The notes below the pieces were generated by a model. That model was not told the DNA's origin. It did no database searches and worked only from the letters and a program-made list of their open reading frames with translations. From Pedobacter sp. (GTDB lineage: Bacteria > Desulfobacterota > Desulfuromonadia > Desulfuromonadales > Syntrophotaleaceae): DNA of 64,000 nucleotides. The position numbers were made by a program, and so were the translations under genes. The DNA is taken from the NCBI GenBank assembly GCA_050253415.1, contig JBFWJC010000002.1, positions 64,001-128,000 of the forward strand. Direction: 5' to 3'. Shown piece by piece: positions 10,027 through 55,929 of this stretch (its first letter is position 1; each line of letters opens with the position of its first letter).

Positions 10027-10069
10027 GGGGTATCCTGTTGCAGGTTTTTTGCGGGCGATAATCAACAAG

Positions 10070-10121
10070 TTAAAAGGGGAAAAGGGGAAAAGGGGGCATG
10101 TGCCCCCTTTTCCCCTTTTAA
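10070..10121. terminator. Long palindromic hairpin between SHOCT gene and ubiD
   Basis: aaggggaaaagggggcatgtgcccccttttcccctt. Confidence 0.55.
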
Positions 10122-10140
10122 GGTCGTTCACTACAGAAAA

Positions 10141-40624: not shown

Positions 40625-42325
40625 TTAACTCTCCAGGCCTTTGCGCATAATCTGATGTCTCTGCCAATAGCGCCCCAGGGCGTCTTTGAGCTGCGACCGT
40701 TGTTTTCTGATTCCCGGCAGTTTTATCTTGGTGGTCTTGGCACCGAGCAACCCTTTTTCCGGGTGAATTATCTGGAGGATATCGCTACCGAAAGCATCTT
40801 CGTATTTCATGTTGGTCACGCTATCCCACGATAGAAGTTCATTTTCTTTTGGCAGGATCAGGCCCTTGTAACTTATGGTAATTCGCTTCCCGCCACGAAG
40901 CCCGAACTCCAGCGGCGGAAAATATTTGAGCACAATTTCTTCCTCGGATTCGTTCGCCGGCAGGAAACAATAGGCCAGTTTTTCCTCATGCGCCGAGGCA
41001 AAGCGGTTTTCGTAAAGCGCCCACAAAGCTTGTTCGATGTTGTCAGCGTTGGGAACATCGGGTATCCATGTGGTGTTTGCCGGCTGGGTAACGATCTGGC
41101 TGTAGTCTTGTTCGTTCACTTCAAAGCCAACGTTACGCATGCGTTCTCGCAGCGCAGGGTGAGAGTCGAAGGGGTGGGGGATGCTGGACTCACGCATCTC
41201 GTCGAGGAACTGCGCGGAAGCGGCATAGGGCGCTAAACCGGTAGCTATGCGATCGGCAATCTTGAGTTGGGACTCATGCCGATCTTCTTTGGCAAATAGT
41301 TTTTCCTCAATGACGTCACGGTAACGGGCGTAGCCGCTGATTTTGATCAAGGAGCGAACGAGCCCCTGTGCCGAAACCAAGGTGGCGGCAACATGGTCGG
41401 CAAGAAACTCGCGAGCGCGGCTATCGCGCTTGAGTGCAAACTCGAAGATCACCCGATACAGGCGAAGTACGTAGAAAGCAAGGATGGTGGCGCTTGCCGA
41501 GTACATCAAGGCACAATAAAAATCGTATTGGGCGAGTTTGGGGCCAAGCAGCGCGCTACTGGCTGTATCCCCGCCACGGAAGTGTGCCAATTCGTGCATG
41601 AGCACTGCATCGGCCTCACCGCGGTCGAGCAGGCGCAGCAAGGGTAAACTGACAAACAACGAGCGTCCGCTCAAAGTCCTGTCTTTGATACACAGCGGTG
41701 CTTCTGTGACGAAAAAATTCGTGTCGATACCCGCGACGATATTATCCGGAGGCGCTGTCCCGGCTTTTGCGGCCAGCTCGCGAACATGCGTCCAGATTGG
41801 CGAGGCATTACTTTCGTCGATCAATTCACCATCCAGGTTTGTAGCCTGGGGCACCTGTTTAAAAATGCAGACAACGGCGTGAAACACGCCCATGGCTGAG
41901 ATGATGGCGGCAATCCCGATCAGTTTCAGAAAATAGACCTTGAAAAAGAAAGCGGTAAGCCAAAAGGCCAACCAGACCAGCAACGCACCCTGTACAACGA
42001 TTTCGATAGCGCAGAACACCGTCAATAATCGCCACCCGGTCACGAAACTCAGATACTGCGTTCGGCGATTGGCAAACGCGGCGGCACCAAGAGAGCAGAT
42101 CGCTAGCAGCATGACAACCCCGGCAATCAAGATCGTCGTAGAGAGCTTGCCGGTGACCTGAAACTGCCACAAAGGCGAGAACGGCCTGGCGGCTATGTCG
42201 GTTGCCCCCGGAGGCAGGGCATAGCATACGAAGGACCATGCTATGAGAGGTACAAGGAACAGAGCCATCAAGGCTGATATGACGATCTTGATTAAATCTT
42301 TGCGCAGAGGGGCGGTGATGGACAT
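40625..42325 (-). CDS. M48 (HtpX/Ste24-like) membrane metallopeptidase
   Basis: N-terminal TMs; HELAH, REFLAD, SHP.L.ER. Confidence 0.85.
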   Translation of the reverse strand: MSITAPLRKDLIKIVISALMALFLVPLIAWSFVCYALPPGATDIAARPFSPLWQFQVTGKLSTTILIAGVVMLLAICSLGAAAFANRRTQYLSFVTGWRLLTVFCAIEIVVQGALLVWLAFWLTAFFFKVYFLKLIGIAAIISAMGVFHAVVCIFKQVPQATNLDGELIDESNASPIWTHVRELAAKAGTAPPDNIVAGIDTNFFVTEAPLCIKDRTLSGRSLFVSLPLLRLLDRGEADAVLMHELAHFRGGDTASSALLGPKLAQYDFYCALMYSASATILAFYVLRLYRVIFEFALKRDSRAREFLADHVAATLVSAQGLVRSLIKISGYARYRDVIEEKLFAKEDRHESQLKIADRIATGLAPYAASAQFLDEMRESSIPHPFDSHPALRERMRNVGFEVNEQDYSQIVTQPANTTWIPDVPNADNIEQALWALYENRFASAHEEKLAYCFLPANESEEEIVLKYFPPLEFGLRGGKRITISYKGLILPKENELLSWDSVTNMKYEDAFGSDILQIIHPEKGLLGAKTTKIKLPGIRKQRSQLKDALGRYWQRHQIMRKGLES

Positions 42326-42382
42326 GGCAAGGCTTCTCCCGTTTTTCGAGTTCTCTGGCTTCGTATTCAATGCTTGTTTTCT

Positions 42383-42552
42383 GGGGAAATTTAAAACTCA
42401 GGGACACTCCCCTGTTTTCTTTGGGTCACGTGATGTGGGTGTCCGGGGGCGACTATGCGAGCGATTATCGGCATGGGGGCAGGATAAAAGAAATCTAAAT
42501 TAGGGGCAATTAAATTTTATGTAAAATAGGGGGAGTGTCCCTGGTTTGTCCT
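42383..42552 (-). mobile_element. Internally deleted (MITE-like) derivative of the RAYT element at 45108-45869
   Basis: Same ends (cagggacactcccc / ggggagtgtccct), near-identical upstream region, and only about the first 18 transposase codons. Confidence 0.8.
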
Positions 42553-42590
42553 GGGAAATTGAGGGATACTCCCGAATGGCGCTGGTTTTC
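42553..42590 (+). repeat. REP-like repeat copy 1
   Basis: gggaaattgagggatactcccgaatggcgctggtttt; direct repeat at 44354-44390. Confidence 0.7.
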
Positions 42591-42667
42591 CTCTGCGGAA
42601 CGTCCCCTCTTGGCAAGTGAACTCCGAAGGCATATCTGGCGGCACAATGAGTCTCTGGGATGACCGG

Positions 42668-43246
42668 TTAGCTCAAAAGAAGCATGTCGGGCAAATTTTC
42701 AAAGACAAGTCGAACGTCATCGTATTGTTCGAGGACTCTTACGACTTCCGGATGCGGATTTGCCCATATTTCGGGTAAGTCCCGTTCTTCTCTGTCATGT
42801 ATCGAAAACGCAAGAGCCTCAACAGGAGGGGTGAATTTCGCATCAATCCCTGGCTTGTTGCCTCGGGCATCGATGCGGTACCATCCATATTCCTTTATGA
42901 ACACGGCGTTCAGTCCATGCAGGCAATATGGGGGCTCTTTATCATTCACAGATAAACGTTGATAACAGAGCCCAGTCGGGATTCCGTTTTTACGTAGCAG
43001 TGCTGCTAAAAGATGACTTTTGGCATAACAATAGCCTGTGCCGTAAAGCAGAACGTCCGAGGCGCGGCAAGTCACAGGGTTTAGTTTGTAATCCCAACTG
43101 TGCTTAATTTCGTCTCGAACGAATTCAAAGCAGCGTCGTATCAGGTCCTGTTCGCTCGAAGCCCCCTTCGCCAGTTGTGCTGCTTTTCGAATAATTTCAG
43201 GATTGTCAAAATCAATATATGTACTCTTTTGAAGATATTTATTCAT
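42668..43246 (-). CDS. Transglutaminase-like protein (putative gene cassette)
   Basis: GYCYAKSHL, HGLNA, IDARG triad motifs; stop codon lies within AGCTAAC (R'' box). Confidence 0.85.
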   Translation of the reverse strand: MNKYLQKSTYIDFDNPEIIRKAAQLAKGASSEQDLIRRCFEFVRDEIKHSWDYKLNPVTCRASDVLLYGTGYCYAKSHLLAALLRKNGIPTGLCYQRLSVNDKEPPYCLHGLNAVFIKEYGWYRIDARGNKPGIDAKFTPPVEALAFSIHDREERDLPEIWANPHPEVVRVLEQYDDVRLVFENLPDMLLLS

Positions 43247-43255
43247 AAGTGGCCT

Positions 43256-43352
43256 GGCTGACATGTGGGGTGAGGGGCGCGGGGGAGCCCAGTTCGGAAA
43301 AGGTACCATACCATTTTGTGGTCTTGCATCGACTGCATTGGCCTTGTCGGGT
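43256..43352 (-). other. Degenerate attC-like site between beta-lactamase and transglutaminase genes
   Basis: ACCCGAC..GTCAGCC variants of RYYYAAC..GTTRRRY; weak internal symmetry. Confidence 0.45.
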
Positions 43353-43354
43353 TT

Positions 43355-44230
43355 CTATCGATTTTTTAATAGAACATCGCAAGTGATTCGAGCTACATCA
43401 GCAATAACCGCACTTTTTGTGTCGTTGGAAGCGGCAGACCCCGTATAAAACACCGTGACAATGAAAGGATCAAGTCCTCTGGGAAAAACAATTGCAACGT
43501 CGTTGCTTGCTCCATTTCCCCCGCTTCCAGTCTTGTCACCGACTACCCAAAAATTGTCGAAACCCGCTCGGAGTTTTTTCGCCCCAGTCGTATTCCCAAA
43601 CATCCATGCCTTGAGTTGTTCTTTGGATGCGGGCGAAAGGTAATCACCCATCAAAATCTTATGGAGCGTTTCAGCCATCGCCTTTGGGGTGCTGGTATCA
43701 CGTAAGTCACCTGGTATGTTCGTATTCAAAGACGGCTCATTTCGATCTAAACGCGTTGTGTTGTCGCCGATGGAGCGAAGGTACTCTGTAAGTGCTTTGG
43801 GGCCACCTATCGCATCAAGGAGTAAGTTGGCAGCCGTATTGTCGCTGTATTGAATGGATGCGGCGTTCAATTCGGACACCGTCATATGTCCTGTACTTAG
43901 GTTGTCTTTTGTAATTGGCGCATACTCAAGAATATCACTTGATTTATAAGATATTGGTCTATCCAGAGCCTCCATATTTGTATCGACTCTGGACAGAATG
44001 GCAGCCCCTAACAAAGCTTTGAACGTACTGCACATCGCAAATCGCTCGTTTTCTCGATAAGAAAGAAGCGGTGTTCCATTAGCCGAAATGACCGAAACAC
44101 CAATCCGTCCACTACTTTCATTCTCAAGCGTTGAAATTCTAGATGTAAATTCTTTCGACGGAACCGGTTCTTCCGAAGCTAATGCCAGTGATGTGAGCAG
44201 AATCATAAACAAAGTTAAGACATATCGCAT
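43355..44230 (-). CDS. bla: Class A serine beta-lactamase (putative gene cassette)
   Basis: Signal peptide; CSTFK, SDN, EPSLN, KTG; GTTAGGT core site at 44269-44275 upstream. Confidence 0.95.
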   Translation of the reverse strand: MRYVLTLFMILLTSLALASEEPVPSKEFTSRISTLENESSGRIGVSVISANGTPLLSYRENERFAMCSTFKALLGAAILSRVDTNMEALDRPISYKSSDILEYAPITKDNLSTGHMTVSELNAASIQYSDNTAANLLLDAIGGPKALTEYLRSIGDNTTRLDRNEPSLNTNIPGDLRDTSTPKAMAETLHKILMGDYLSPASKEQLKAWMFGNTTGAKKLRAGFDNFWVVGDKTGSGGNGASNDVAIVFPRGLDPFIVTVFYTGSAASNDTKSAVIADVARITCDVLLKNR

Positions 44231-44353
44231 AAATTTGACTTCCTTGAGGGTAGAACGGTTTGGCCTAAACCTAACGAGCCTGTAGGAAAACCCCACAACT
44301 CTCTCGATTGATAAAAATCAGTCCCGGAATTTTATATCAAATCCATTTTTCTT

Positions 44354-44390
44354 GGGGGAAATTTAGGGATATCCGAATGGCGCTCGTTTT
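44354..44390 (+). repeat. REP-like repeat copy 2
   Basis: ggggaaatttagggatatccgaatggcgctcgtttt. Confidence 0.7.
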
Positions 44391-44557
44391 AAAAACAACA
44401 GGAACCCTTCGCATATTTTTCATTGCCACGAACCCTTGCTTGCGATAGCATCTCCGCCATTTCCAGCACTGCCGAATCATAGCAGCCGGTCACCCGCTCA
44501 TTTCACACGGCACGACAACGATCGCGCCGTAGCCTGTTTGCAGTTGAATTTCCTGAC

Positions 44558-45082
44558 ATGACCAACGACTCCTATATCACCTATCGCCCCATCGGCATCC
44601 TGCGATCCCCCTATACCCGGCGCATTGATGCACCTCATCAAAGCACAGTGGTGGAAGGCACTGAAACCGGAGCGTTGGCCACAGCTACCCTGGAACTTCA
44701 GGATTGGCTGGACGAGAAAGTCATCCAAGATCTGGCCGGCTTCGAGCGACTTTGGCTCATCTTCGACTTTAATCGGAGTGAAGGCTGGAAAAGCAGCGTC
44801 AAACCGCCCCGGGGTGGACCGAAGCGGGGTGTTCTGGCCACCCGCTCCCCTCATCGTCCCAATTCCATCGGCCTTTCGGCGGTGGAATTGGTCAAGATCG
44901 AAGGCAGGACGCTGCACCTTCGCGGCGTGGATCTCCTGGATGGCACCCCTGTTCTGGATATCAAACCCTACGTGCCCTACGCGGACGCCTTTCCCGACGC
45001 CAAGGCCGGCTGGATCGACGATCTGGATGAAAAGCTGGGACGTCATTCCGCGCCAGGACCTCGCAGGCCCAGGGGTGGGTAA
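44558..45082 (+). CDS. trmO: tRNA (t6A37)-methyltransferase TrmO/TsaA
   Basis: GVLATRSPHRPNSIGLS, DLLDGTPVLDIKPY. Confidence 0.92.
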   Translation: MTNDSYITYRPIGILRSPYTRRIDAPHQSTVVEGTETGALATATLELQDWLDEKVIQDLAGFERLWLIFDFNRSEGWKSSVKPPRGGPKRGVLATRSPHRPNSIGLSAVELVKIEGRTLHLRGVDLLDGTPVLDIKPYVPYADAFPDAKAGWIDDLDEKLGRHSAPGPRRPRGG

Positions 45083-45107
45083 GAACGCTGTCGTGGCCTT
45101 GCCTATC

Positions 45108-45869
45108 GGGAAATTCAGGGACACTTCCCTGTTTTCTTTCTGGCCTTCCTAGTTTACTCAACCTCAATACTTGATTCAGTTGCAGTTCCATTTTTTCAAT
45201 AAATACATCTGATCCGAAGGGGCGTCCTGATCTGGTAGCTTTGCGTAGCAAATTTTCTGTTTGTTCGTCTTCTTGCGACACAAATCTGGCGTAGGCTTCC
45301 CTGTTATCCAGAGAGAGCCAAGAAGGCTCAGTCAGCAGGTCATCCTTTGTACCGTTAATATGAGTTTTTGCACTGGACCAGCGATAAATTTCTGCCCTGT
45401 CGGCAAGTCCTGCTTTCACCGGATTATTTTCGATGTAGCGTGCAACAGACCAGAGGTATGCGTCATCTTCAACGATGCAGGAAAAAAAGCGATTCTGCCA
45501 AATTCGACCACCCTGTTTCAACTTTCGATTCAAGTATTGGGTATAGACCTGAGTAGTCAGGCCGACGCCACGTGAAAGGGAGTCTTCCTTATCGGGAACC
45601 GCAAGAGGTGCACATGGTTGTCCGTCAGACAGTAGGCCCAAAGTTGTAAAGAGTGCCGCCTAGAGTATTTATGAAGGAGTTTCAGATAAGTATGGCGATC
45701 CTCATCATCGAAAAAGGTCACAGGGCGATTGTTGCCACGTTGGGTCACGTAATGTGGGTGTCCAGGGGCGACTAAGCGAGCGATTCTTTTCATAGAGGAA
45801 GGATAAAAGAAATATAAATTAGAGGCAATTAAATTTTATATAAAATAGGGGGAGTGTCCCTAATTTTCC
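45108..45869 (-). mobile_element. REP-associated tyrosine transposase (Y1/HUH) element 1, frameshifted
   Basis: ORFs 45557-45793 (VTQRGNNR, NHVHLL) and 44961-45641 (WQNRF, YIENNPVKAG) join by a 1-nt shift near 45605; terminal IRs ggaaattcagggacacttccc / ggggagtgtccctaattttcc. Confidence 0.88.
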
Positions 45870-45973
45870 TACAACGACACTGATGAAGGGCGACGGCACA
45901 CCGTGACAGACAGCACCGCATTTTTCGGGCAGCAGCCAGGCCCCTTTCGTCCCGCTCGATCAATTGGTTAGAC
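45869..45973 (-). other. attC site
   Basis: Minus strand GTCTAAC...GTTGTAG with imperfect internal dyad; directly abuts the RAYT IR. Confidence 0.7.
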
Positions 45974-46547
45974 GATTACTTTAAATGCAAGAAACAGTTC
46001 TTCTTCCGGCACAAACTTATGCAAGGTTTTGCTCAAAATGGTTATTGAGTTAAAGCATTTATTTACTGTTTCCTGCCCGTTGGTTAAGTAGTCTGACTAC
46101 ATTTTTAGCAAGGCTTCGGCGTCAATTTCGCCGTTTCTGAACGGTATCGCCTTAGATTTTGGATGTATAAGCTTGTTTTGTATTTTGAATAGAAAGTCTA
46201 GGGTTTCGTATGCTTGCTGGTCTTTCGGAAAGTCTTTCCTGCAATCATTTTGATTAAAACTATGCATTTAGAGAATGTATCGAGTTTGTCGATATGTTTA
46301 CTAAAAAAGGAATCGCCCCAATTTATGGAAGCGTAATCGTTGACAAAAGATTCTAGGTCCATTGCAGTGAAGACAATCGTTTTTATGCCAGAGTTCTCTC
46401 TGGATTTTCCTATTTCGAAATAAAGGTAAGAATCTTCTTCTAGGGTTGGCTCACGGTCTAGTGAAAATGACTCATCAAAAAAATTTTTTCACTTGAGGGA
46501 AATTTTATATAGGTCCACCAGAAAGAATTTTATCTTGCGTAGCTCAT
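45968..46547 (-). pseudogene. Decayed HEPN-like cassette gene
   Basis: Manual translation SGIKTIVFTAMDLESFVNDYA...IQNKLIHPK with two stops and frameshifts; resembles 54214-54834. Confidence 0.7.
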
Positions 46548-46559
46548 AATTATTCTTTC

Positions 46560-46642
46560 GTCTAAAGCCGCCAACACGTGCGGCCTTAGAGTGGAGGCGA
46601 ATCCGAAACGGAAAGACCGTCACGTACTTGGCATTGTTATGC
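46560..46642 (-). other. attC site (G of R' box mutated to T)
   Basis: GCATAAC-aatgccaagtacgtg...cacgtgttggcggc-TTTAGAC. Confidence 0.75.
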
Positions 46643-46712
46643 TGCTTGCAGACAATATTATTCTATGAAAATAGGAAAATAACGGCCAAGCATCTTAGCC
46701 AGTTTAAAGAAG

Positions 46713-47453
46713 TCATGATTTCCTAAACACTAAAACATTTGATCTAAACAATTTAAAAAGAAAAGAAATTACTTTGCTATTGCACGCTAAGGAGTATTTC
46801 CCAGAGCGGTAGTACTTTAATATCAAACTTCCGTGATTTCCTAAGTACTCAAAACCGCTTTTTTCAAATGCCTCAACAATAGCGCTATTACTTCGATATT
46901 CAGTGTATTTTCTCACATACTGTAAGGCTTCTTCAGGATTAGTTTTGAATTTCTCTCTAAAAAATCCAAATCTAGCACACATATTATAATAAATCTTATT
47001 TTTTAATATTCCACCGAACGGAACTCCTACATGAGGCTCAAGAATAGAGTATTTGGAAGGAAAGTAGTGTATTACTAATCCACCTGTTCTAAGTATGCGT
47101 GAATTTTCAGATATAAAATCATCAATGTTTTTAACATGCTCTAGCACAGCTCTGCTAGCCACAACGTTAAATATACAATCTTCGAAAGGCCAAATATATT
47201 GATCTTCCGAACTTCGAATGCTTGATCTAGAGGTAGCCGACATTCTAATCTTTTTGATGTAGCCCTCATCCAGCAGTTTTTTTGTATGCGGTCCTAGTTT
47301 AAATTCAACGTCCGTACCGAAAGTCGTATAACCCTTTTTTTTCAACTCTATGACGTTTCCGCCGTTCCCACAACCTACATCTAGGATTGAAATATCGTGT
47401 TTGCTAGTATTTGCATAGGATCGAATTAGCTCCTCTAAAATTTCAAGGTACAT
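46713..47453 (-). CDS. Class I SAM-dependent methyltransferase (cassette)
   Basis: ILDVGCGNG, VLEHV, RILRTGG; AT-rich, bounded by attC sites. Confidence 0.85.
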   Translation of the reverse strand: MYLEILEELIRSYANTSKHDISILDVGCGNGGNVIELKKKGYTTFGTDVEFKLGPHTKKLLDEGYIKKIRMSATSRSSIRSSEDQYIWPFEDCIFNVVASRAVLEHVKNIDDFISENSRILRTGGLVIHYFPSKYSILEPHVGVPFGGILKNKIYYNMCARFGFFREKFKTNPEEALQYVRKYTEYRSNSAIVEAFEKSGFEYLGNHGSLILKYYRSGKYSLACNSKVISFLFKLFRSNVLVFRKS

Positions 47454-47510
47454 GCTTTCTTATTCCATAAAATATATTTTAATTACGCACTTGGCGCATT
47501 GAAAAACTTA

Positions 47511-47625
47511 GCACAACGGTTCATGATAACTGGCGGCGACGAATTGTTCGAACAACACCGCAATTTAGTTTTGCTTTTCAATTTAGCGCAGACGTATTTT
47601 CCGTCGGTTGATTAGTTTGTTAGCC
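47511..47625 (-). other. attC site
   Basis: GGCTAAC...GTTGTGC with dyad symmetry; homologous to 54110-54227. Confidence 0.8.
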
Positions 47626-48243
47626 CAATGGAATGTTTTGCAAAAGAGAATTTAGTGACTTTGAACCTGTAGGGCTGAGTAGCCATATGAAACCAAATAA
47701 GTTCAAAACCACGGTTACCCAAAATATGAATCTGAAGGATTCTTTTTTTGTCTTATGTCGTAAATTTTGCTGAGCGACTAATGCACCAGGCCAACCGCCA
47801 GCTAATGAAAACTTGTGCAAAGTGCTTTCCTGGATTCTCCATTTGCCTTTTTTGGAAGCGGACTTGTCCAATGCGTAGGCAATATATGTGAGGATGCTTA
47901 ACGATATGTAAATAATAAGGATGTGTATTGGAAGCTTCCCGCTTAGCACCGTAGCTGCCACAGTTCCCATAAATAGTATCGCTAATGCAAATGGAAATTT
48001 AGCCGAACTTTTGTTTTCGTACCTAACAGATCTTTCCTCTGCGCGAGTTGCGTTTATGGCACATTGACGACCTTTTTTGTCTATGGATTCACTGTAATTG
48101 ACTTTTTGACCGATCTCGGGTTGGCGGTAACGGTTGCTGAAGTCTTTGATATGGACAAAGATTTGTTTTCCACCAGAAGCGGGTAAAATAAAGCCGAATC
48201 CTTTGTCTTTGTTCCACGACGCGATGGTCCCTCTTTTTCTCAT
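47620..48243 (-). CDS. Cold-shock domain + DUF1294 protein (cassette)
   Basis: WNKDKGFGFI, IFVHI; DK.A....WRI.E.TL, GGWPGA, RHKT.K..F; stop within the R'' box. Confidence 0.9.
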   Translation of the reverse strand: MRKRGTIASWNKDKGFGFILPASGGKQIFVHIKDFSNRYRQPEIGQKVNYSESIDKKGRQCAINATRAEERSVRYENKSSAKFPFALAILFMGTVAATVLSGKLPIHILIIYISLSILTYIAYALDKSASKKGKWRIQESTLHKFSLAGGWPGALVAQQNLRHKTKKESFRFIFWVTVVLNLFGFIWLLSPTGSKSLNSLLQNIPLG

Positions 48244-48259
48244 ATCATTTTCTTTTAAG

Positions 48260-48338
48260 GGCTAACGTTAAGTTCACCGACGGCGTTCACGCCGTCCGAG
48301 CGTAGCGCAGCAAAGCGGTGTGCAACGATTGGTTAGCA
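48260..48338 (-). other. attC site
   Basis: TGCTAAC-caatcgttgcacaccg...cggtgaacttaac-GTTAGCC, clear dyad with extrahelical base. Confidence 0.85.
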
Positions 48339-48395
48339 AATTTTATTAATGGTTGCACTTGTTGATGTTTAATCACTATTTATCATTTTTAGAAA

Positions 48396-48688
48396 ATTTA
48401 TAATAAATTACAAAGCTAAATAGTGAAACTATCAATAAAGACAAAAATGAAAGTAAGCGACTTTTTGAGTAGTAAACTCTGGCAAGCTCCATTTGACTTT
48501 GCGTTGAATAATATGTTACCCAAGCATCACTTTCGATAAACCCAATGGAGTATTTGCTTCTATTTATTTGCCGAACTTCAAAGCCTCTACCTTCTTATCT
48601 CATCCCCTTTGAGTCCTGTCTTTTCAGCCATTGAGACAATTCATCTCTACCTGGAAATCGCTGTTGGTTTGCTGGGTTTGTGGGGTTT
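48396..48688 (-). pseudogene. 5'-truncated cassette ORF remnant with internal stop and C-terminal TM
   Basis: Manual translation ..FPGRDELSQWLKRQDSKGMR*EGRG...LLSFLSLLIVSLFSFVIYYKFSKNDK*; cut by the RAYT-2 end. Confidence 0.5.
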
Positions 48689-49616
48689 GGGGTCGGACCA
48701 AGCTAACCTGTTGAATCCATAAACAAAATATCAAGAAAATAGCTGTTATTCGAGCTTAAAACCACCTTTTGGGGACCAAAATCAACCCTGTAAGGTTCAG
48801 ATGCCTCCCTCAACACACATCGGTCGGCCTCTAGTTGCTCGATTTTTCTTCCCAGCCCCTGCCTACCAAGCCTAGTCTTTATATCTTCAATAAATCCCAT
48901 ACCACCAACAGCGATACTCTCAGTCCAGAAACTTTCCCTTTGATGATTTCTGTCGCTAATGGCCGCATCGACCCATTGCCGGTGCTGCCTGGAAAACTCC
49001 TTGGAGTCCGAAAATCCGCAAAGGTTCCTTAAGCCCGCCTGGTCAATCACACCATACCGTTCAGGCGGATTCTGGATCTCGTTGTAGCCACACATATCCC
49101 ATTCCGATGGATGATTCACCACACCAGCGCGGACCATGTTGAGGTCCATATAAACAAGGCATCTGACAAGGTGTTCATTCCGCTCAACAGCTGTAGCGTG
49201 ATAACGGTCTTCCCAGAACGCTCCCTTGCGCTTTTTGCGTTGATTGAATTCTTGGGCGGTTCGGCTGGCAATCAGTTGCAGGCTTTTTGGAATGACATCC
49301 GGGCTATCATCAATGACCAATAGATGGATATGATTGGACGTGACGACATAATTTAATATTCTCAAGCCAAAGCGTTTCTTGGCTTCAAACAGCCAGGACT
49401 TCCAACGTCTTCTGTCCTTGGCGAATTTGAGGAGGAACTCTTTTTTATGGCAACGATGGGTGATATGCCATACCTGCCCGGGAATATGATGTCGGTTTGC
49501 TCTTGCCATTCTTAGACATCTCTTTTTGCCAGTGAAAACGCGTCGCTAAGATCAAATAAAGGGAAAAATAAGCCTATTTTCCGAATCATTACAGTTGTTT
49601 AGCTTGGTCCGGCCCC
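48689..49616 (-). mobile_element. REP-associated tyrosine transposase element 2 with 18-bp terminal inverted repeats
   Basis: ggggtcggaccaagctaa / ttagcttggtccggcccc (17 of 18 match); no target duplication seen. Confidence 0.85.
48703..49509 (-). CDS. RAYT / Y1 HUH transposase, apparently intact
   Basis: HITHRC, NHIHLL (HUH), FWEDRYH, YMDLNMVRAG. Confidence 0.9.
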   Translation of the reverse strand: MARANRHHIPGQVWHITHRCHKKEFLLKFAKDRRRWKSWLFEAKKRFGLRILNYVVTSNHIHLLVIDDSPDVIPKSLQLIASRTAQEFNQRKKRKGAFWEDRYHATAVERNEHLVRCLVYMDLNMVRAGVVNHPSEWDMCGYNEIQNPPERYGVIDQAGLRNLCGFSDSKEFSRQHRQWVDAAISDRNHQRESFWTESIAVGGMGFIEDIKTRLGRQGLGRKIEQLEADRCVLREASEPYRVDFGPQKVVLSSNNSYFLDILFMDSTG

Positions 49617-50387
49617 GACAAAACCGCTTTCTACACTTAACATTCGATCTAGCAATATTTTGTGAATGGCAGAAATTGCCATTTCGACCATTATTGCCAT
49701 CTTACCGATTTCGAGATTTAGATCGTCACTATAATCTAATATTTGCAATGCTAATATTGCACGATTGCAACTGTTTTTTAAGTCATGTAACCGACATCTT
49801 TCATCCGTTTTAAGGGTAGCGGATCGAACTGCATAAAACTCCTGTGCAGCCAGGAACAATTCTTCAATTATTTTAAAGGTATGCTTTAATTCGCGTCGAT
49901 TCAAAAGTATAGTGTGATCATGTCGAAATTGGAGATTATATGCCTTGAAATAGGCATTCCTTAGATCTGTCCATGCTGTCAAAATTGATTCTTCAGAGAT
50001 TGCAGTTCTGATATCTTCAATAGTACAATTAGTGTCTTGCTTAGAAACTATTATATGTAATCTTGTGTTAAGAGGAATTGGTAAGGACAAATAGTTAAGT
50101 GATATTAGTAAAGGATGCGCTTTGTATTGTGATTTAATTAACTCATCAATATCATCTTGAGTTATATTAAGAATTTTAAGTGACTGTTTAGCCACAAGGG
50201 AATATTTAAAGTATGTATCCATTGAGTTTGTTGGTTTACTTATTTGTTGTTCGACTTTATTTTTTGTAGCCTTTAAGGCGCGACGTCTTAAAAATTTCAA
50301 GAAATAAGAGGATGCAGAGACGACTAATACTGTCCCTGCACCGCTAAATATCCAGTCCTTTGCGTCAATAACCCAATCAAGTGACAT
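49599..50387 (-). CDS. Hypothetical cassette protein with N-terminal TM; 3' end supplied by RAYT-2 IR
   Basis: KDWIFSGAGTVLVV N-terminal anchor; final GAGPS* encoded by the IR. Confidence 0.7.
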   Translation of the reverse strand: MSLDWVIDAKDWIFSGAGTVLVVSASSYFLKFLRRRALKATKNKVEQQISKPTNSMDTYFKYSLVAKQSLKILNITQDDIDELIKSQYKAHPLLISLNYLSLPIPLNTRLHIIVSKQDTNCTIEDIRTAISEESILTAWTDLRNAYFKAYNLQFRHDHTILLNRRELKHTFKIIEELFLAAQEFYAVRSATLKTDERCRLHDLKNSCNRAILALQILDYSDDLNLEIGKMAIMVEMAISAIHKILLDRMLSVESGFVGAGPS

Positions 50388-50440
50388 TTAATCACCTCTC
50401 GCCAATATTGACAAATTCATTCCATACTCATAGTCTTATT

Positions 50441-50556
50441 GTTTTAGTACCAAACTTACCGGCGGCAATGGAGCGCAGGAAACGTCCCTGAATTCCTCAC
50501 TGCGGCAAATTTGGAGCGCAGCGGAAAGTTTGTCCGACACCAGCGCATTGTTATGT
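50441..50556 (-). other. Chimeric or interrupted attC containing a REP-like motif
   Basis: ACATAAC left arm, then ggaattcagggacgtt, then a different attC-like right arm. Confidence 0.6.
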
Positions 50557-50567
50557 GAGGTTATCAC

Positions 50568-51428
50568 TCAGGCCACCTCTACCATCAGTGCTAAACACAT
50601 AATTCTTTCCCAATGGTTCACAAAGGGCGCAGCATCAATTGCGGGCTGCAAAATGGTGCTTTTTGCAACCTCAAGCTCCAATGGTATTTGCAACAAAGCT
50701 TGAATTTGCGCTAAATAAGTAACCAGCCTTGGGCCAGCCTCTTTTGAGAACCTTAAGTCTAAATTAAAATCATTAAAGTGTTTTTTTACTCGAAGTTTTT
50801 GGGTATCCTCCCAATGTTCTGGAGGTCTAACGAAGTACTCAATAACCCCAGGTTCACCGCCTGTATCTGCTGTATATCGAGCAAATATCCACTGCTCGTT
50901 GAAATACCGATCGTTATCCAAATATGGTTGAAGTACTTGTTCTGCTTCACTAGTGGCAAAGTTCTCTCCTTTGCCATCCATGTTGCAGTCTCTGCACGAG
51001 GGCACCAAGTTGACCGGCAATACCGAAAATTGTGGGTAGTGCGCTTTGGGCAGGAAATGATCCAAGTTTCGAGGGCGGCCGATACCACCGCAAAAAGGAC
51101 ATTTCTCGTTGGCCGCAGCCATCAAGGCATTATAAATTACGCGGGCAGGTTTATCCTCTTTTACAAAGTAAGTGCTATACAGCTTTAACAGATCCGATTT
51201 CTTTAGCTGCCCAACAACAACTGGGTCATGATCCCGGCCATTAGGAGTCGAAGGTATAGTGTACAGTTCTCCTCTAGAGGCTGACGCGGTATAGCCAACT
51301 GCACTAGCTTGCAAAAGGTGCATGTCGTTATCCACTTTTTGCAGTAATTCGTCATTGCCTGTGATTCCTTGGCGACACATTTCAATTACTTGCTCACTTG
51401 AATAAGCAGGTTGTTTAAGCTTTAACAT
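50568..51428 (-). CDS. HNH endonuclease (Septu PtuB-like)
   Basis: CPFCG...LDHFLPK...NLVPSCRDCN; TGATG coupling to the ATPase. Confidence 0.85.
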   Translation of the reverse strand: MLKLKQPAYSSEQVIEMCRQGITGNDELLQKVDNDMHLLQASAVGYTASASRGELYTIPSTPNGRDHDPVVVGQLKKSDLLKLYSTYFVKEDKPARVIYNALMAAANEKCPFCGGIGRPRNLDHFLPKAHYPQFSVLPVNLVPSCRDCNMDGKGENFATSEAEQVLQPYLDNDRYFNEQWIFARYTADTGGEPGVIEYFVRPPEHWEDTQKLRVKKHFNDFNLDLRFSKEAGPRLVTYLAQIQALLQIPLELEVAKSTILQPAIDAAPFVNHWERIMCLALMVEVA

Positions 51429-52945
51429 CAACCTGCGCTCCTATCGCGATGCGTTACAAGTGCTTTCAATAACGCACGCGCTTCTAAACCAAGTTGGTTG
51501 TTATATTCGTTCACTATCTGTTGGTATGAGCTTCCTCTCTCGACAGACTTTACCAATAAATCGTGAAAACCTGACTTCACCACTTCAAGCCCAAACACCT
51601 CTCTGGTTAAGACGCCAACATTTTCACCAAATGTCTCGATATCAGGTCTGCGCGGATCAGTGACCATACCAACCAGATTAATTTTCCAGGCACTAGACCT
51701 AGGAACTTCTTGCAGCACAACGGGTGAGTGTGTGGCTATAATTGACACACCATTTCGGTCATGAAGTAGTTCAGATAAAGCGCGAATAAAAGCTGATAGC
51801 AATGGTGGGTGAAGATGACTTTCTGGCTCATCAATAAGAACCAAAGTTTTTTCTTCAACGGTGGCAACTAGTCGAGTGATGGTTAGCAACACCACAGCAT
51901 GACCAGAGCTCATTCTTCTGATCGTTTTGTGCGCTTTTTTCGTTAGCTCCTCGCTGGAGAATTGAGTAAGGCCCTTCAATCCCATGCTTGCAAAATTTTC
52001 ATCTGATTCCAGTGTATCTATCGCTTTTAACCACCTATCGCGCTTAGAAATTTGACTAAAGCAAGATTTTAAAGCCTGGAGAAAGTCCTGGTGTATATCA
52101 TAAAGCCCCTTGAGAGTGTCACCTCCCTTTTTCAGTCCTATATAAAAATAACATGTCCCCAGAGAAGGATCTGGTTGTTCCATGGGAGGTTCAAAAGGGT
52201 CAAAAGCACTAAATGACACAGATACCAAACTACTGAAATAATCGGTATCAATAGGGCTGGCATGACAGCCCTCAACATCATAAAACTTGGCCTCTGACTG
52301 ACCTTTACTAGTGATGGCTTCGATCATCCCATTGAGGAGAGTTGTCTTGCCTACACCATTCCGGCCTATAATTGCATGAATATTAGTGCTCGGCCTTGAT
52401 TCAACCTCCACCTTAAACTTCAATTCGATACCAGAAATTTTATCTTTCCTGGGTCTAACAAACTTGAACTCAAAATTTGTCAGTGGGGGAAGGCAAGCCA
52501 ATACCCTAGAATACTGCCCTTTAATGACAGATAAGCTGACACCTCTCAGCAAGGAGGTTCGAAAAACTTCCTCCTCTTGAGCAAGCTCAATCAACTCAGG
52601 AGTTAAAACGATGTCTTTTAATGCTGTGAGTAATTTATTTCTGAACTGTACTGGCAAAGAAGATATTTTTTTGTAATAGTCAACATCTTGACCCACAGAA
52701 AAATACCCATCAGGCAACTGCTGGAAGGAATTGCTTAGTAATGAGTAAGTTGTTTTTTCTTTTGTTTGACCTTTAAAGCCAATTTTTACATTACCAAGGT
52801 CATGGAGAGACCCCTTATCGTCATGTAATTCTAGGTAAAACATGGTTACAAACGAGAAGTCATTCCAGTGGTCAATGGTTAGATAAGCAGTATTCAACCC
52901 AGACGGAGGAGTTTTTGCATCTCTTGGCAAAATAATAAAGTTCAT
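51428..52945 (-). CDS. ABC-type ATPase (Septu PtuA-like)
   Basis: GRNGVGKT, MSSG, LIDEPESHLHP, ATHSP; no TM partner gene. Confidence 0.88.
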   Translation of the reverse strand: MNFIILPRDAKTPPSGLNTAYLTIDHWNDFSFVTMFYLELHDDKGSLHDLGNVKIGFKGQTKEKTTYSLLSNSFQQLPDGYFSVGQDVDYYKKISSLPVQFRNKLLTALKDIVLTPELIELAQEEEVFRTSLLRGVSLSVIKGQYSRVLACLPPLTNFEFKFVRPRKDKISGIELKFKVEVESRPSTNIHAIIGRNGVGKTTLLNGMIEAITSKGQSEAKFYDVEGCHASPIDTDYFSSLVSVSFSAFDPFEPPMEQPDPSLGTCYFYIGLKKGGDTLKGLYDIHQDFLQALKSCFSQISKRDRWLKAIDTLESDENFASMGLKGLTQFSSEELTKKAHKTIRRMSSGHAVVLLTITRLVATVEEKTLVLIDEPESHLHPPLLSAFIRALSELLHDRNGVSIIATHSPVVLQEVPRSSAWKINLVGMVTDPRRPDIETFGENVGVLTREVFGLEVVKSGFHDLLVKSVERGSSYQQIVNEYNNQLGLEARALLKALVTHRDRSAG

Positions 52946-52976
52946 TTTTTAACACTACTTATTATCGGTGAATATC

Positions 52977-53079
52977 ACATAAATAATTGGTTTAAGCGGC
53001 AGCCCACCGCAGAACAAACTGGTTGATACTATTAGGGAAGTCCCCCGCTTCTTCTGTCCGCCTGAAATTCTTGTTAGCT
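52977..53079 (-). other. attC site (G of R' box mutated to T)
   Basis: AGCTAAC-aagaatttcaggcgg...ccgcttaaaccaatta-TTTATGT. Confidence 0.75.
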
Positions 53080-53083
53080 TTAC

Positions 53084-54085
53084 TTATTCCCAAGACTCGC
53101 CATTTAATTTGTTTGCTAGGTCCCTCGAATTAGTACATTCACCCACTAAACCATAAAAATACTTTTTTGATTGAAACATGCCCCCACTTGAGACTTTTCT
53201 GAAGTTTGTTTCTGAGCCATTAGACAGAATAAAAACTTGGAGGGGGGTCTTTTCGTTTTCTGCGGTCCTGTGCGCAGATGCGCTGATATGACCAATTGCA
53301 ATCTCTTCCAGTTTTTTATTTGATATATCTTTGTTTTTCCACTTCAACTTGACGTTTGACATATTTACGTCAACTGAAACAACCGCATCTATTTCGTATA
53401 TTTTTGATACGTTTTTATTGGCGTATGGGCCAAAGAACTTGGCTCGCCGATGTCTATAGGCCCCACCTTTGTCTGGGCACATATATGCTCCATTTTTAAC
53501 CTCATGTAGAGTTCCTCTGCAATTTACTACTTCCAAAAGTTTTTTCCATCTAGGCAAGCGTCCACTTCTATCTAAGTAGTTTTCGAACTCTTCAAGGTGG
53601 CTTTTAAAAACATCAGAAGACCGCGCTCCTTTTAAGCATTTCATAAATTCTTCAAAAGAAATAGCCTGTAGAATTATGCCTGACTCCTGCGCCACTGCTC
53701 TATCTTTAGAGAATCTTTCTTCATATTCTTCTGTTTGAAAATTTGATATTAGGAAAAGGATTTTTGTGCCGTTCTCAGAGCTAAGGCCATCAATATGCCT
53801 CTTAATCTGGCTTGAATAAAACCAGTCGGTGAGTTTTGTTTCGAAAAATATGGAAAAAGCCTTTTGGCTAATTGAAAGGTCCGGAATACTTTTTACCTCT
53901 TTATGTTGCTGGGCAAATGTTGGCCCTACCATTAGGTCAACATCACCAGATACCATTGATGTGATGGTTTCTTCGAAACTTGCTGGATTCTCAGAATAGA
54001 GCAACTTAAGAATGAGACCACAGTAATTAGTAAGTGAATTCTCTTTTTGGCGATAATCAGAAAAGAGTGAAATTTCTCGCCCCAT
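53084..54085 (-). CDS. Putative PD-(D/E)XK nuclease-domain protein (cassette)
   Basis: ENSLT helix, then IPDLSISQKAFSIFFETK (PD...ExK); start set at MGREI after the attC. Confidence 0.65.
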   Translation of the reverse strand: MGREISLFSDYRQKENSLTNYCGLILKLLYSENPASFEETITSMVSGDVDLMVGPTFAQQHKEVKSIPDLSISQKAFSIFFETKLTDWFYSSQIKRHIDGLSSENGTKILFLISNFQTEEYEERFSKDRAVAQESGIILQAISFEEFMKCLKGARSSDVFKSHLEEFENYLDRSGRLPRWKKLLEVVNCRGTLHEVKNGAYMCPDKGGAYRHRRAKFFGPYANKNVSKIYEIDAVVSVDVNMSNVKLKWKNKDISNKKLEEIAIGHISASAHRTAENEKTPLQVFILSNGSETNFRKVSSGGMFQSKKYFYGLVGECTNSRDLANKLNGESWE

Positions 54086-54109
54086 TTTTTTCCTTTTAAT
54101 TGTTTTGAA

Positions 54110-54227
54110 CGCTAACTGTTTATGATAACCGGCGGCGACGAACTGCTCGAACACCACCGCAATTTTAGATTTTGTTTCTCAATTTTGCACAGAAGCGTTT
54201 TCCGGCTGGTTGATTATGTTGTTAGGT
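54110..54227 (-). other. attC site
   Basis: ACCTAAC-aacataatcaaccag...ccggttatcataaaca-GTTAGCG. Confidence 0.82.
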
Positions 54228-54834
54228 TTTTCATTTTCAAACCAATGTCAGCATCTAAAGTTTTTAGATTTTCAATTATAAATTCAATGTCTTCTATTGT
54301 TTCTTCTACAGAAATTTCAGACGGGTGCAAAGTGACAAAGTCTTTCATTCTTTTGGAGTAAAACTCTTTTGTTTTTGGGTGGACAAGGCTATTTCTTTTG
54401 TCAAATAACTTTCTTGTCCAGTTTAATAATTCGTCATTTTTTTTAAGTTTTACCTCGAGACACATTAATAAGATTAACGACAGTTTTTCTGTAATGCCTA
54501 CACGCTCTAGATTCCTTTTGTAAAATTCACTACCAAGTCTCACTGCGCCGTAGTAATTTATTAAGCCTTCTACAGTCATGCATGCAAACAAAATTGAAGA
54601 TGTTGCGTATCTGTAGGCTTCTTCTCGTAGCCTATCGGTTTTGTAGCAAACAAATGATTCAATATTTTCCTGTCCAATGTCATAATTTTCTTTTCTTATT
54701 TTTTCCTCTTCTTCCGACAGAGTGGCTAATAATTTATTGTATTCATCTTTAAACTTGTACGCGGACTCATAATAAAAACGATGGGAACTTACCCACGCAC
54801 CGTCGGTGGCATAGGGGCGAATGTTTTTTGTCAT
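54214..54834 (-). CDS. HEPN-like protein (cassette)
   Basis: Helical; SSILFACMTVEGLIN followed by RNSLVH (Rx4H). Confidence 0.65.
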   Translation of the reverse strand: MTKNIRPYATDGAWVSSHRFYYESAYKFKDEYNKLLATLSEEEEKIRKENYDIGQENIESFVCYKTDRLREEAYRYATSSILFACMTVEGLINYYGAVRLGSEFYKRNLERVGITEKLSLILLMCLEVKLKKNDELLNWTRKLFDKRNSLVHPKTKEFYSKRMKDFVTLHPSEISVEETIEDIEFIIENLKTLDADIGLKMKNLTT

Positions 54835-54842
54835 ATTTTAAA

Positions 54843-54946
54843 AGCTAACGTTGTGGTAACCGGCTGCGTCGTGCCGGAACAAATTAGTAGAGACCTTTAC
54901 GGGAGTCGCCCCTGTATCACCAGTCCGGTTGACCTATTGGTTGGGA
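54843..54946 (-). other. attC site
   Basis: TCCCAAC-caataggtcaaccgg...ccggttaccacaac-GTTAGCT. Confidence 0.82.
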
Positions 54947-55075
54947 ATGGTGTAGGGCTTTGGTCTCATCATCATTCCAGACTCTGGGAATGATTTGAAG
55001 GTGCATGAGAAAACTCAACCCCTGATCATCAAAATATAAGCTTTCTCGCATCTTTCAATGTCGGATATCTTCAAG

Positions 55076-55408
55076 TCACTGAGCTCCTAAACGGACTATG
55101 CCATAATCAACTCCACCACGGGGCGAAGGGGCAAGTTTGACTTCATAAGTAACTTTCTTTCCATTACTATCAATATTCCAGTGCTCAACATATGATGACC
55201 CCTCTTTTCCAACCGTGTTAGCTGAAAGCAATTTGGGGTGAGCGTCTCCTCCTGCTGCTGACTCATATATGCCAATCATCCGCATTACATCAGACTGCAA
55301 TTTTGCATCAGCCACCGTTCCGTGAGATTGTGGGGCTACTGCACAGCCAGCAGCAATGAGTGCAATAAATACAAATGCAATGGGAAGTACTTTAAGAATC
55401 AACCTCAT
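55076..55408 (-). CDS. Small lipoprotein, first cassette of the array
   Basis: GGAGG RBS; AAGC lipobox; bounded by GTTGGGC and TCCCAAC. Confidence 0.75.
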   Translation of the reverse strand: MRLILKVLPIAFVFIALIAAGCAVAPQSHGTVADAKLQSDVMRMIGIYESAAGGDAHPKLLSANTVGKEGSSYVEHWNIDSNGKKVTYEVKLAPSPRGGVDYGIVRLGAQ

Positions 55409-55434
55409 GCCATCCTCCAAGTTAAAGTGTTCAT

Positions 55435-55500
55435 GCCCAACATTGTTGATAAGCGGAAAACTGTCCATCATATTACCCTTATAGAATGGACTATTTTCCA
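55435..55500 (-). other. Putative attI site
   Basis: GTTGGGC core matching the first cassette's TCCCAAC, with no attC hairpin upstream. Confidence 0.5.
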
Positions 55501-55929
55501 TTTATTGAATTATTAAAGGGGTAAAAGTGGAAAATATCGCCTTGATTTTTCCACCTGCTGATAAAGCCATGCCTGCATAGTTGCGCCGAGCAAGTTGCCT
55601 TGGTAGTCGGCCATAAAAAAGCCGCCCTCCGGTTCTTCTCCGGTTGGACGGCTCTAGTTGACCCCTGCGGTATATCTATTTGTCGGCATGTTCCCTCCTA
55701 AAAGATTCCACATTGACGATTCGCAAATGTAACTAATTTAACTATTGCAGGTCAAGGATTGAGTATGTCTTTGGAGAAAAAGTGGATTGTACCAGGGCGA
55801 AGCATAATCCGACGCCCAGGCTAATGCTCCAGGCTATGAGAAAAGCCTCCGGTTCAGCGATCGTGGGCTTTTTCTTATGGAAATATAGATACTTATATAA
55901 TTTCAGCACCCTTGGTTTATGCTCAAAGG

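Follow-up and report, generated by a model that had tools for sequence, protein, structure and literature searches.

How does an array of gene cassettes come to stand behind a complete integron attachment site with no integrase beside it, and could its cassettes still be moved? The question is raised by a locus on contig JBFWJC010000002.1 (C2 below) of the Pedobacter sp. assembly GCA_050253415.1, placed in the Syntrophotaleaceae (Desulfuromonadales), of which we analysed positions 64,001 to 128,000 (C2:64001-128000), a stretch of 64,000 nucleotides (nt) referred to here as the window. On the minus strand of the window, between 45869 and 55564, about 9.7 kb is occupied by an attI module and then by eight cassettes, each closed by an attC site. 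The locus is an attC-site cluster that lacks an integron integrase (CALIN, as defined by Cury et al. 2016, PMC4889954) that has retained its attI, that is, an integron platform without an integrase of its own. The reading that we prefer, and hold with some but not great confidence, is that the array is serviced in trans by the IntI integrase of the same genome while it is partly decaying. An earlier note on this DNA had likewise proposed a CALIN whose integrase was lost or acts in trans, and this proposal holds: there is no integrase in the window, and an intact IntI on another contig, C1, makes action in trans possible.

attC sites, cassette footprint and attI

The array is AT-rich (a guanine-plus-cytosine fraction of 0.36-0.45 between 46001 and 56000, whereas most of the 64-kb window has about 0.52-0.64) and its open reading frames (ORFs) are co-oriented, all on the minus strand, as the earlier note had described. 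Each unit consists of one or two ORFs and an imperfect palindrome of 79-118 nt, which starts with ..YAAC and finishes with GTT, following the pattern RYYYAAC...GTTRRRY. All eight palindromes are present at the lengths first claimed for them; two of them carry TTT in place of GTT.

These palindromes were first placed by eye, with attC sites elsewhere in the same genome as an independent reference. One covariance model, R1, was built from seven attC sites beside the intI gene on C1, none of them from the window, with a hand-set structure (an R box of 3 pairs, an L helix of 11 pairs and two unpaired columns on the R''-L'' arm); in its training alignment 98 of 98 pair cells pair, and five pairs show compensatory changes. 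The other, R2, draws on 52 matches from seven loci of the same genome outside the window, two of these matches being attI modules. Run over the 64 kb with filters off, R1 finds five of the eight sites (30-99.5 bits, E values of 1.4e-21 to 1.2e-4), all on the minus strand and with ends that coincide exactly with those set by eye, and its best remaining match has an E value of 0.21; R2 finds six sites at E<0.01 and a seventh (46642-46560) weakly, at E 0.28. The earlier note had made its case depend on an attC covariance model scoring these palindromes, and the models do score them. By these in-genome models the locus has what defines a CALIN, at least two scored attC sites no more than about 4 kb apart. 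The sites, in array order, are:

54843-54946, minus: attC1, TCCCAAC...GTTAGCT, 104 nt; 99.5 bits with R1, 90.4 bits with R2
54110-54227, minus: attC2, ACCTAAC...GTTAGCG, 118 nt; 45.2 bits with R1, 47.4 bits with R2
52977-53079, minus: attC3, AGCTAAC...TTTATGT, 103 nt; 30.0 bits with R1, 34.2 bits with R2
50445-50556, minus: attC4, degenerate and placed by eye; starts ACATAAC, with an inner imperfect palindrome and no clear R' box
48260-48338, minus: attC5, TGCTAAC...GTTAGCC, 79 nt; 22.8 bits (E 0.0033) with R2, missed by R1
47511-47625, minus: attC6, GGCTAAC...GTTGTGC, 115 nt; 48.9 bits with R1, 53.4 bits with R2
46560-46642, minus: attC7, GCATAAC...TTTAGAC, 83 nt; 15.4 bits with R2, exact ends
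45869-45973, minus: attC8, the final site of the array, GTCTAAC...GTTGTAG, 105 nt; 43.1 bits with R1, 59.0 bits with R2

When the seven scored sites are aligned to the model, 96.7% of pair cells pair and compensatory changes occur in 8 of 14 pairs, compared with 25-40% pairing in slid-partner controls; because the alignment was fitted to the model, its counts favour that structure. As read from the alignments, unpaired bases are found on the R''-L'' arm (the 5' arm, top strand), as in canonical attC sites. The attC1 site is 85-90% identical to three attC sites of the intI-linked array. The attC3 site has the cleavage triplet TTT in place of GTT and an unpaired cell at pair 7-161; attC7, whose cleavage triplet is also mutated to TTT, has an E value of 0.28 when the whole window is searched and of 0.043 for the 9.9-kb array by itself, and is built like the site C1:5902-5822; and attC4 (50556-50445) is scored by neither R1 nor R2 at E<=10. 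Judged by a model independent of the window, the palindromes are attC sites.

Other routes to the sites were tried and set aside. A detector demanding complementarity of R'' and R' within one site is conceptually wrong for arrayed sites and recovered only attC5, and a search for RYYYAAC/GTTRRRY combined with banded arm alignment returned 584 loci scoring at least 12 in 4.1 Mb, with one of the eight window sites among them, although other arrays did stand out. Folding energy did not serve as an attC discriminator (z-scores of +1.2 to -2.8 against shuffled interiors, in unconstrained and constrained DNA folding), and MAFFT alignments of the eight window sites, of ten mixed C1 sites and of nine short-class sites misaligned the R'/L' boxes and so were not used for models. 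Rfam gave no matches in the window at gathering score. Outside the array, the sole weak attC-model match in the window is a strong palindrome at 10060-10195 (about -30 kcal/mol; 18.7 bits, E 0.037, R2, plus strand).

Circular cassettes inserted by IntI leave a footprint, in that the core at the start of each cassette complements the box at its own end, and all seven of the pairs that the earlier note quoted in this regard are present. Over the four variable bases that follow the start triplet (GTT, or TTT at two sites), the first variable bases of a cassette match the complement of its own-end inverse core at 24 of 28 positions in seven cassettes; cassette 5 is not among them, since attC4 is without a clear R' box. 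In a permutation control of 5040 reassignments the mean was 14.0 and a count of 24 was reached by two, and the two boxes of a single attC site, as arrayed, match at just 1-2 of four positions. The cassettes were put in place by site-specific recombination of the IntI type at G|TT, which we regard as shown.

The array starts at the following features:

55437-55564, minus: attI module, 128 nt, recognised by homology to the intI-adjacent sequence C1:1751306-1751433
55444-55442, minus: attI crossover G|TT, placed by alignment of attI copies

The attI that the earlier note had put forward as putative is borne out by this homology: its 128 nt are 88% identical to the stretch that separates the intact intI from the first cassette on C1, and the similarity ends at the crossover GTT (GTTGG). 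The module is recognisable here because the genome's own intI-linked attI serves as a reference. It has two copies of the motif GGAAAA and two of TTTTCC, their orientation alternating, and, in the crossover region, an L-like box TATCAAC, then AAT, then the R box GTTGGGC; these motifs and boxes are putative IntI-binding elements. Copies of the module were aligned in sets of 5 and of 14, and the window copy keeps 79 of the 87 columns that are invariant in seven intI-linked attI. Judged from its sequence, 55437-55564 is a genuine attI. We note also that R1, which was trained without any attI, weakly matches attI modules (window 55435-55518, L009 1853-1936 and L010 2806-2889, at 15.7, 20.1 and 14.8 bits respectively), a hint that attI may fold somewhat like an attC or share boxes with it.

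The genome's integrase and the attI modules of the family

The earlier note had remarked upon the absence of a tyrosine recombinase beside the attI, and neither an integron integrase nor a remnant of one lies anywhere in the window: a six-frame search with TIGR02249 gives no integron integrase match there, tblastn with the genome's IntI gives a best E value of 0.82, and at the nucleotide level the intI region matches the window in its attI part alone. The arrangement of a complete integron, in which intI adjoins attI and is normally divergent from the cassettes, is absent at 55437-55564. The search for IntI elsewhere, suggested in the same note, finds one integron integrase above the curated 265-bit cut-off in the genome, on C1 (447.6 bits, TIGR02249, six-frame). 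It is a protein of 333 amino acids (aa) with no stops, which scores 447.9 bits as a protein, and its nearest named relatives are in Desulfuromonadales metagenome-assembled genomes; eleven attC sites were read in the array beside its gene, and all eleven end in GTT. The attC sequence classes found beside this intI recur in the window array. Outside the window on the same contig (G000:C2:470321-470557) lies a 111-aa ORF whose match to the integron-integrase model, at 95.7 bits, is limited to the C-terminal quarter, with a single attC match (471387-471486) about 830 nt downstream on the same strand; the two may be the remnant of another integron.

Across the genome R1 has 45 matches at E<=0.01, all of them within ten clusters:

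intI-linked array at the end of C1: 10 R1 matches
Window array: 5 R1 matches
C1:336-342 kb: 7 R1 matches
C8 end: 7 R1 matches
C16: 4 R1 matches
C1 start: 3 R1 matches
C5: 3 R1 matches
C2:175-178 kb (174894-177531, minus strand, same contig as the window): 3 R1 matches
C3: 2 R1 matches
C2:471 kb: 1 R1 match

Several of the clusters reach a contig end, so that some may be parts of one array. Four of the ten, the intI-linked one among them, begin at an attI module or its remnant. Two more full attI copies (C1:335760-335885 and C3:106416-106534) and a 36-nt remnant (C1:7562-7597) are each followed by attC sites, none with intI, and in this genome intI stands beside one of the four full-length attI modules. 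A hairpin that seemed to be shared upstream of three orphan attI loci was rejected, the BLAST homology being confined to the attI module.

Beyond this genome, 11 of the 16 family genomes compared contain the attI module, often in several copies; the 24 genomes from the order's other families contain none. Twelve attI loci were compared: six have an adjoining IntI at least 78% identical, five, the window included, have no IntI in the approximately 1.5 kb compared, and one has a 33%-identical recombinase. The last of these (L027, G008:C57) is an attI-like module adjoining a tyrosine recombinase that is just 33% identical to the genome's IntI. In the complete genome of a member of the same genus, G005, two of four attI modules abut intI and two do not. 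The two integrase-less modules (L105, G005:C1:3548000-3567900) lie 8.7 kb apart with different cassettes after each, and each is preceded by near-identical copies of an EAL-domain gene and a 225-aa gene, a tandem segmental duplication of the upstream genes plus attI.

The alpha/beta hydrolase gene that flanks the array upstream is found in only two other genomes of the family, and in one of them, the sister genome G006, the hydrolase has 94% aa identity. The syntenic locus of G006 consists of the hydrolase gene, the same intergenic DNA and the first approximately 19 nt of attI, with no intI, followed by the right half of an attC, a single cassette absent from the window, the same REP-type (repetitive extragenic palindromic) transposase element and finally the trmO/beta-lactamase/transglutaminase block at 96% identity; what takes up 9.7 kb in the window is about 1 kb in G006, with that one different cassette. 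G006 shares the integrase-less junction, and the junction therefore predates the split of the two species. At the deletion joint in G006 (L028, 17560-17640) the attI stub of approximately 19 nt runs into the middle of an attC of the long class; the event was non-site-specific and destroyed the docking site.

Compared as a whole with the 16 family genomes, the array gives matches only for cassette 1, cassette 6, the transposase and attC sequences, and the gene order, whose fixation in distant relatives the earlier note had named as a ground for doubting its reading, is not fixed. Cassette 1 is the sixth cassette of the intI-linked array of G006, at 91% identity, and the IntI there is 97% identical; the homology begins exactly at GTT, and the sequence upstream of it is an attC in G006 and the attI in the window. 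A contig of another metagenome carries cassette 1 at about 99% identity over 54844-55441, ending at 54844 and 55441 with unlike sequence on both sides, and an 87%-identical copy of cassette 6 lies in the same-genus genome G004, a few kb from the intI of that genome. The cassettes thus have the marks of mobility, content differing between relatives and cassettes 1 and 6 recurring in or near other intI-linked loci. Joints in metagenome contigs (for example, 50555 to 54846 in X4) were set aside, being short and possibly stemming from attC similarity.

Origin and present state of the array

We favor an account in which the locus would descend from one of several integrons typical of the genus, and its intI would have been lost before the window species and the sister species of G006 split. 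IntI made elsewhere would excise cassettes at the five attC sites that keep GTT and are scored by the models (1, 2, 5, 6 and 8) and would insert cassettes at the window attI, while the middle and distal array would be decaying into fixed genes. We infer that IntI recombines these sites in trans; published recombination assays routinely provide the integrase in that way. About half of CALINs are found in genomes coding for IntI, and 95% are without a nearby intI pseudogene, according to the passages of PMC4889954 drawn on here, which also name loss of the integrase from one of several integrons in a genome as an origin of CALINs.

Several observations weigh against continued service in trans. 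No recombination event at the locus has been observed directly. Three of the eight attC sites are impaired (two with TTT, and one unscored and without an R' box), against none of 11 in the intI-linked array; cassette 8 has become a pseudogene; and there are two insertions of REP-type transposase elements, one inside cassette 5 and one abutting attC8. The window attI keeps 90.6% of invariant positions, where six of seven left-out intI-linked attI keep at least 94.6% in a leave-one-out comparison (ranges of 88-100% for intI-linked attI and 83-92% for the other orphan attI), and three of its changes fall in the repeat adjoining the crossover; orphan attI modules thus appear somewhat more diverged than intI-linked ones, a comparison that kinship confounds. 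The locus in the sister genome G006 is a fossil, its attI deleted to approximately 19 nt. Cassette 1 is 91% identical between the two species, about as the flanks are (89.7%), and because its divergence is close to that of the flanks it was possibly inserted before the loss of intI. We note too that both attC models derive from the same genome's own sites.

Most of the same observations would suit a fossil array, in which no IntI event followed the loss of intI, and ordinary deletions, transposase insertions and events that preceded the loss account for what is seen, the genes becoming fixed. We regard this as unlikely, if still to be taken seriously. The damage to attC3, attC4 and attC7, the pseudogene in cassette 8 and the two REP-type transposase insertions fit such a history, as do a window attI more diverged at conserved positions than most intI-linked attI, the reduction of the G006 copy by a deletion that was not site-specific (attI nt ~19 joined to mid-attC) and the agreement of cassette 1 with its flanks in interspecies divergence; CALINs are, moreover, described as a possible step towards stabilisation in the relevant part of Cury et al. 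2016 (PMC4889954). Three findings are harder to accommodate. The attI core is intact, as are the two attC sites nearest to it, and scores here are high; the lone cassette at the G006 locus has no counterpart in the window array, so that content differs by more than deletion; and in another sample the copy of cassette 1 with 99% identity is followed downstream by a different neighbour, so that a junction at attC1 has changed recently in one lineage.

It is highly improbable that the cassettes were inserted at a secondary, attG-type GTT site and that the array grew there without ever having been an integron platform. That route is proposed for single attC sites lacking an integron integrase (SALINs) and for small CALINs in the part of Loot et al. 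(10.1101/2022.09.11.507474) that concerns us, and the window resembles those cases in having cassettes away from the integrase. As described there, however, they are without attI and are single or very small, whereas the window array starts at a full attI: the complete 128-nt module, homologous to the intI-adjacent one, precedes cassette 1, where a secondary site would offer no more than a GTT within host DNA.

We give just as little credence to an assembly artefact or a split integron, in which the array would continue from, or have been cut from, the intI-linked array on C1. The assembly is a draft of 18 contigs, several of which end inside cassette arrays (the C1 end, the C8 end and C16), and in the likely source run the de Bruijn contigs are interrupted where attC and attI repeats occur. 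The window array is, however, interior to C2, with 45 kb and 8 kb flanking it; the two attI copies differ at 12% of positions; the independent genome G006 has the same hydrolase-attI junction; and a split would leave an array without attI. The idea that the palindromes belong to some other repeat family (REP-like elements or terminators with AAC/GTT ends by chance) has a negligible probability: REP-type transposases and repeats are present in the region, the free-energy z-scores are unremarkable (+1.2 to -2.8) and Rfam has no match, but a model trained on intI-adjacent sites finds the palindromes, all 45 R1 matches fall in ten clusters of which four start at an attI module or remnant, and the own-end complementarity and the attI homology speak for attC.

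CALINs and their mobilisation in trans have already been described, the latter being stated as possible in the portion of 10.1101/2025.06.18.660453 cited here, and the window array is an ordinary example that leaves current understanding unchanged. Like the CALINs of PMC4889954, as far as the passages used here describe them, it has at least two attC sites, no nearby intI or pseudogene, and an IntI elsewhere in the genome; it differs in having a recognisable attI. In those passages attI was searched for only by exact match to classes 1-3, and retention of attI by CALINs is not assessed. The Xanthomonas integrons with decayed intI, and the CALINs at conserved positions, that are reported in the cited portion of 10.1101/2025.06.18.660453 are alike in that there is an ancestral platform and that arrays outlast integrase activity; there intI usually persists as a pseudogene downstream of ilvD, whereas the window has no remnant and the genome has an intact paralogous integron. 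With sedentary chromosomal integrons, for which criteria are given in the passages of PMC4889954 used here, the array shares its chromosomal position and the few homogeneous attC classes found genome-wide.

The Vibrio cholerae superintegron, an example of such integrons, is also alike in having cassettes mostly of unknown function with defence genes among them. The window array differs from it in having no integrase in cis and only eight cassettes, and its genome in having about ten attC clusters and at least four attI modules. Set against the passages cited, what is new here is modest, namely a demonstrable attI at a CALIN and the recurrence of orphan attI modules across a family. An origin of CALINs by integrase loss is rarely demonstrable because attI sites outside classes 1-3 are unannotated, and this locus provides a clear and checkable example, an integron that lost its integrase cleanly and kept its attI, as distinct from a split array or an insertion at a secondary site.

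That orphan attI modules recur raises the tentative possibility, for which we see a reasonable case short of an even one, of a distributed integron in this family, in which several attI modules downstream of different chromosomal genes would be accompanied by fewer integrases, and the orphan attI would capture and release cassettes through IntI made elsewhere. The relevant counts are intI at one of four attI in the window's genome and at two of four in G005, and a close IntI at 6 of 12 compared loci. In that event a single integrase would act on many arrays whose transcriptional contexts differ, and CALINs that bear attI would be working parts of a system and not wreckage. The recurrence of orphan attI in an environmental bacterial family also offers a natural system for testing whether one integrase services several docking sites in trans.

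Cassette contents and flanking genes

The cassettes and the element inserted in one of them are:

54849-55443, minus: cassette 1, with an ORF of 110 aa (55408-55076); putative lipoprotein, with a signal peptide and L-I-A-A-G-C lipobox read by eye
54214-54834, minus: cassette 2 ORF, 206 aa; widespread family, HEPN-like as a lead only (R-N-x3-H motif by eye)
53084-54085, minus: cassette 3 ORF, 333 aa; PD-(D/E)XK nuclease-like, as a lead only
51428-52945, minus: cassette 4 gene A, 505 aa; PtuA-type AAA ATPase (PADLOC; Pfam AAA_21 and AAA_15)
50568-51431, minus: cassette 4 gene B, 287 aa; partner protein (PADLOC PDC-M01B, E 2.5e-112, full length)
49599-50387, minus: cassette 5 ORF, 262 aa (ORF listing)
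48694-49611, minus: element inside cassette 5 with a REP-associated tyrosine transposase gene, 48703-49509, 268 aa (NF047646, Pfam Y1_Tnp)
47620-48243, minus: cassette 6 ORF, 207 aa; cold-shock domain and DUF1294 (Pfam CSD, DUF1294)
46713-47453, minus: cassette 7 ORF, 246 aa; S-adenosylmethionine-dependent methyltransferase (Pfam Methyltransf_23, _11 and _25)
45974-46559, minus: cassette 8, decayed gene (one frameshift plus in-frame stops, from three-frame translation)

Cassette 4 encodes a Septu-like candidate defence pair. Gene A matches PADLOC PtuA1 (E 6.7e-210) and PDC-M01A (E 8.2e-210), both over the full length, while gene B has a Cys/His HNH-like motif seen by eye and no Pfam match. The pair resembles Septu (a PtuA ATPase with a PtuB HNH nuclease) and PDC-M01 in its full-length matches to PtuA1/PDC-M01A and PDC-M01B and in its overlapping genes within one cassette; it departs from Septu in that the partner matches the PDC-M01B and PDC-M62B profiles, with none named PtuB among the best 25 of 54 PADLOC matches. 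The cassette 1 ORF has no Pfam, NCBIfam or PADLOC match. For cassette 2 the structural neighbour in the Atlas is a RiboL-PSP-HEPN cluster (TM-score 0.57), and for cassette 3, which has no family or PDB sequence match, the nearest Atlas clusters are labelled PD-(D/E)XK, with PDDEXK_4 in 29-30% of their members; PDB sequence searches with the proteins of cassettes 2, 3 and 5 gave nothing meaningful. Integron cassettes encoding phage defence have been reported (10.1101/2024.07.02.601719, in the part considered here), and the Septu-like pair together with the two nuclease-like cassettes would fit the recent view of integrons as stores of phage-defence genes. A 'KLIHPK' segment in the decayed gene of cassette 8 resembles cassette 2.

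The transposase in cassette 5 scores 68.5 bits with NF047646 (cut-off 80) and E 3.2e-10 with Pfam Y1_Tnp, and its element, 48694-49611, is framed by perfect 13-nt inverted repeats (48694-48706 and 49599-49611), of which the left one provides the stop codon of the 262-aa cassette 5 ORF. Homologues of this transposase lie in or near the arrays of many genomes of the family. In the AT-rich spacer of the same cassette, just before attC5, a 38-codon ORF at about 48385-48500 (minus) would encode a small hydrophobic peptide.

The array is embedded in C2, bordered within the window alone by 45 kb and 8 kb, and there are chromosomal genes on both flanks. Its immediate neighbours are:

55930-56892, minus, co-oriented with the array: alpha/beta hydrolase gene, the upstream flank (Pfam Abhydrolase_1)
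45111-45866, minus: REP-type Y1 transposase element with a frameshifted gene, the downstream boundary, abutting attC8 (direct repeats D1 and D3; Pfam Y1_Tnp)

The earlier note had called the hydrolase gene YheT-like, and this is right as to resemblance, the match to PRK10985, which we take to be the YheT model, being full length, but at 219.7 bits it falls under the 267-bit cut-off. The 365 nt between the hydrolase gene and the attI module are non-coding, and a promoter and terminator scan of 55350-56000 gave two promoter-like sites against 1.6 expected and no terminator by the rule of the scan; the cassette promoter Pc was not located.

At the other end, the array had been drawn in the earlier note as 42600 to 55500; the array is real, but its limits are 45869-55564. 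No attC is detected below 45869, the sole R2 match overlapping 42300-45868 being one of 10.9 bits (E 4.2) on the plus strand, and 42600-45868 is not demonstrably part of the array. That interval contains the REP-type transposase element, trmO (plus strand), a class A beta-lactamase gene and a transglutaminase-like gene. The beta-lactamase gene (43355-44296, minus) scores 326.7 bits with the bla_class_A model NF033103 (cut-off 200 bits), and with no attC scoring between 42300 and 45868 it does not qualify as a resistance cassette. Both ORF pieces of the 45111-45866 element match Y1_Tnp, at 21.9 and 18.3 bits (E 2e-4 and 2.7e-3), under the curated cut-off of 23 bits, and the element is 94.9% identical to a copy in G006. 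A 154-nt miniature copy, which is the two ends of the element joined (repeats D1 and D3), lies 2.6 kb away at 42394-42547. Between the element and its miniature, the beta-lactamase gene adjoins the transglutaminase-like gene (42668-43309, minus) and trmO (44558-45082, plus), and this block, 96% identical in G006, is more conserved than the surrounding flanks (81-90%).

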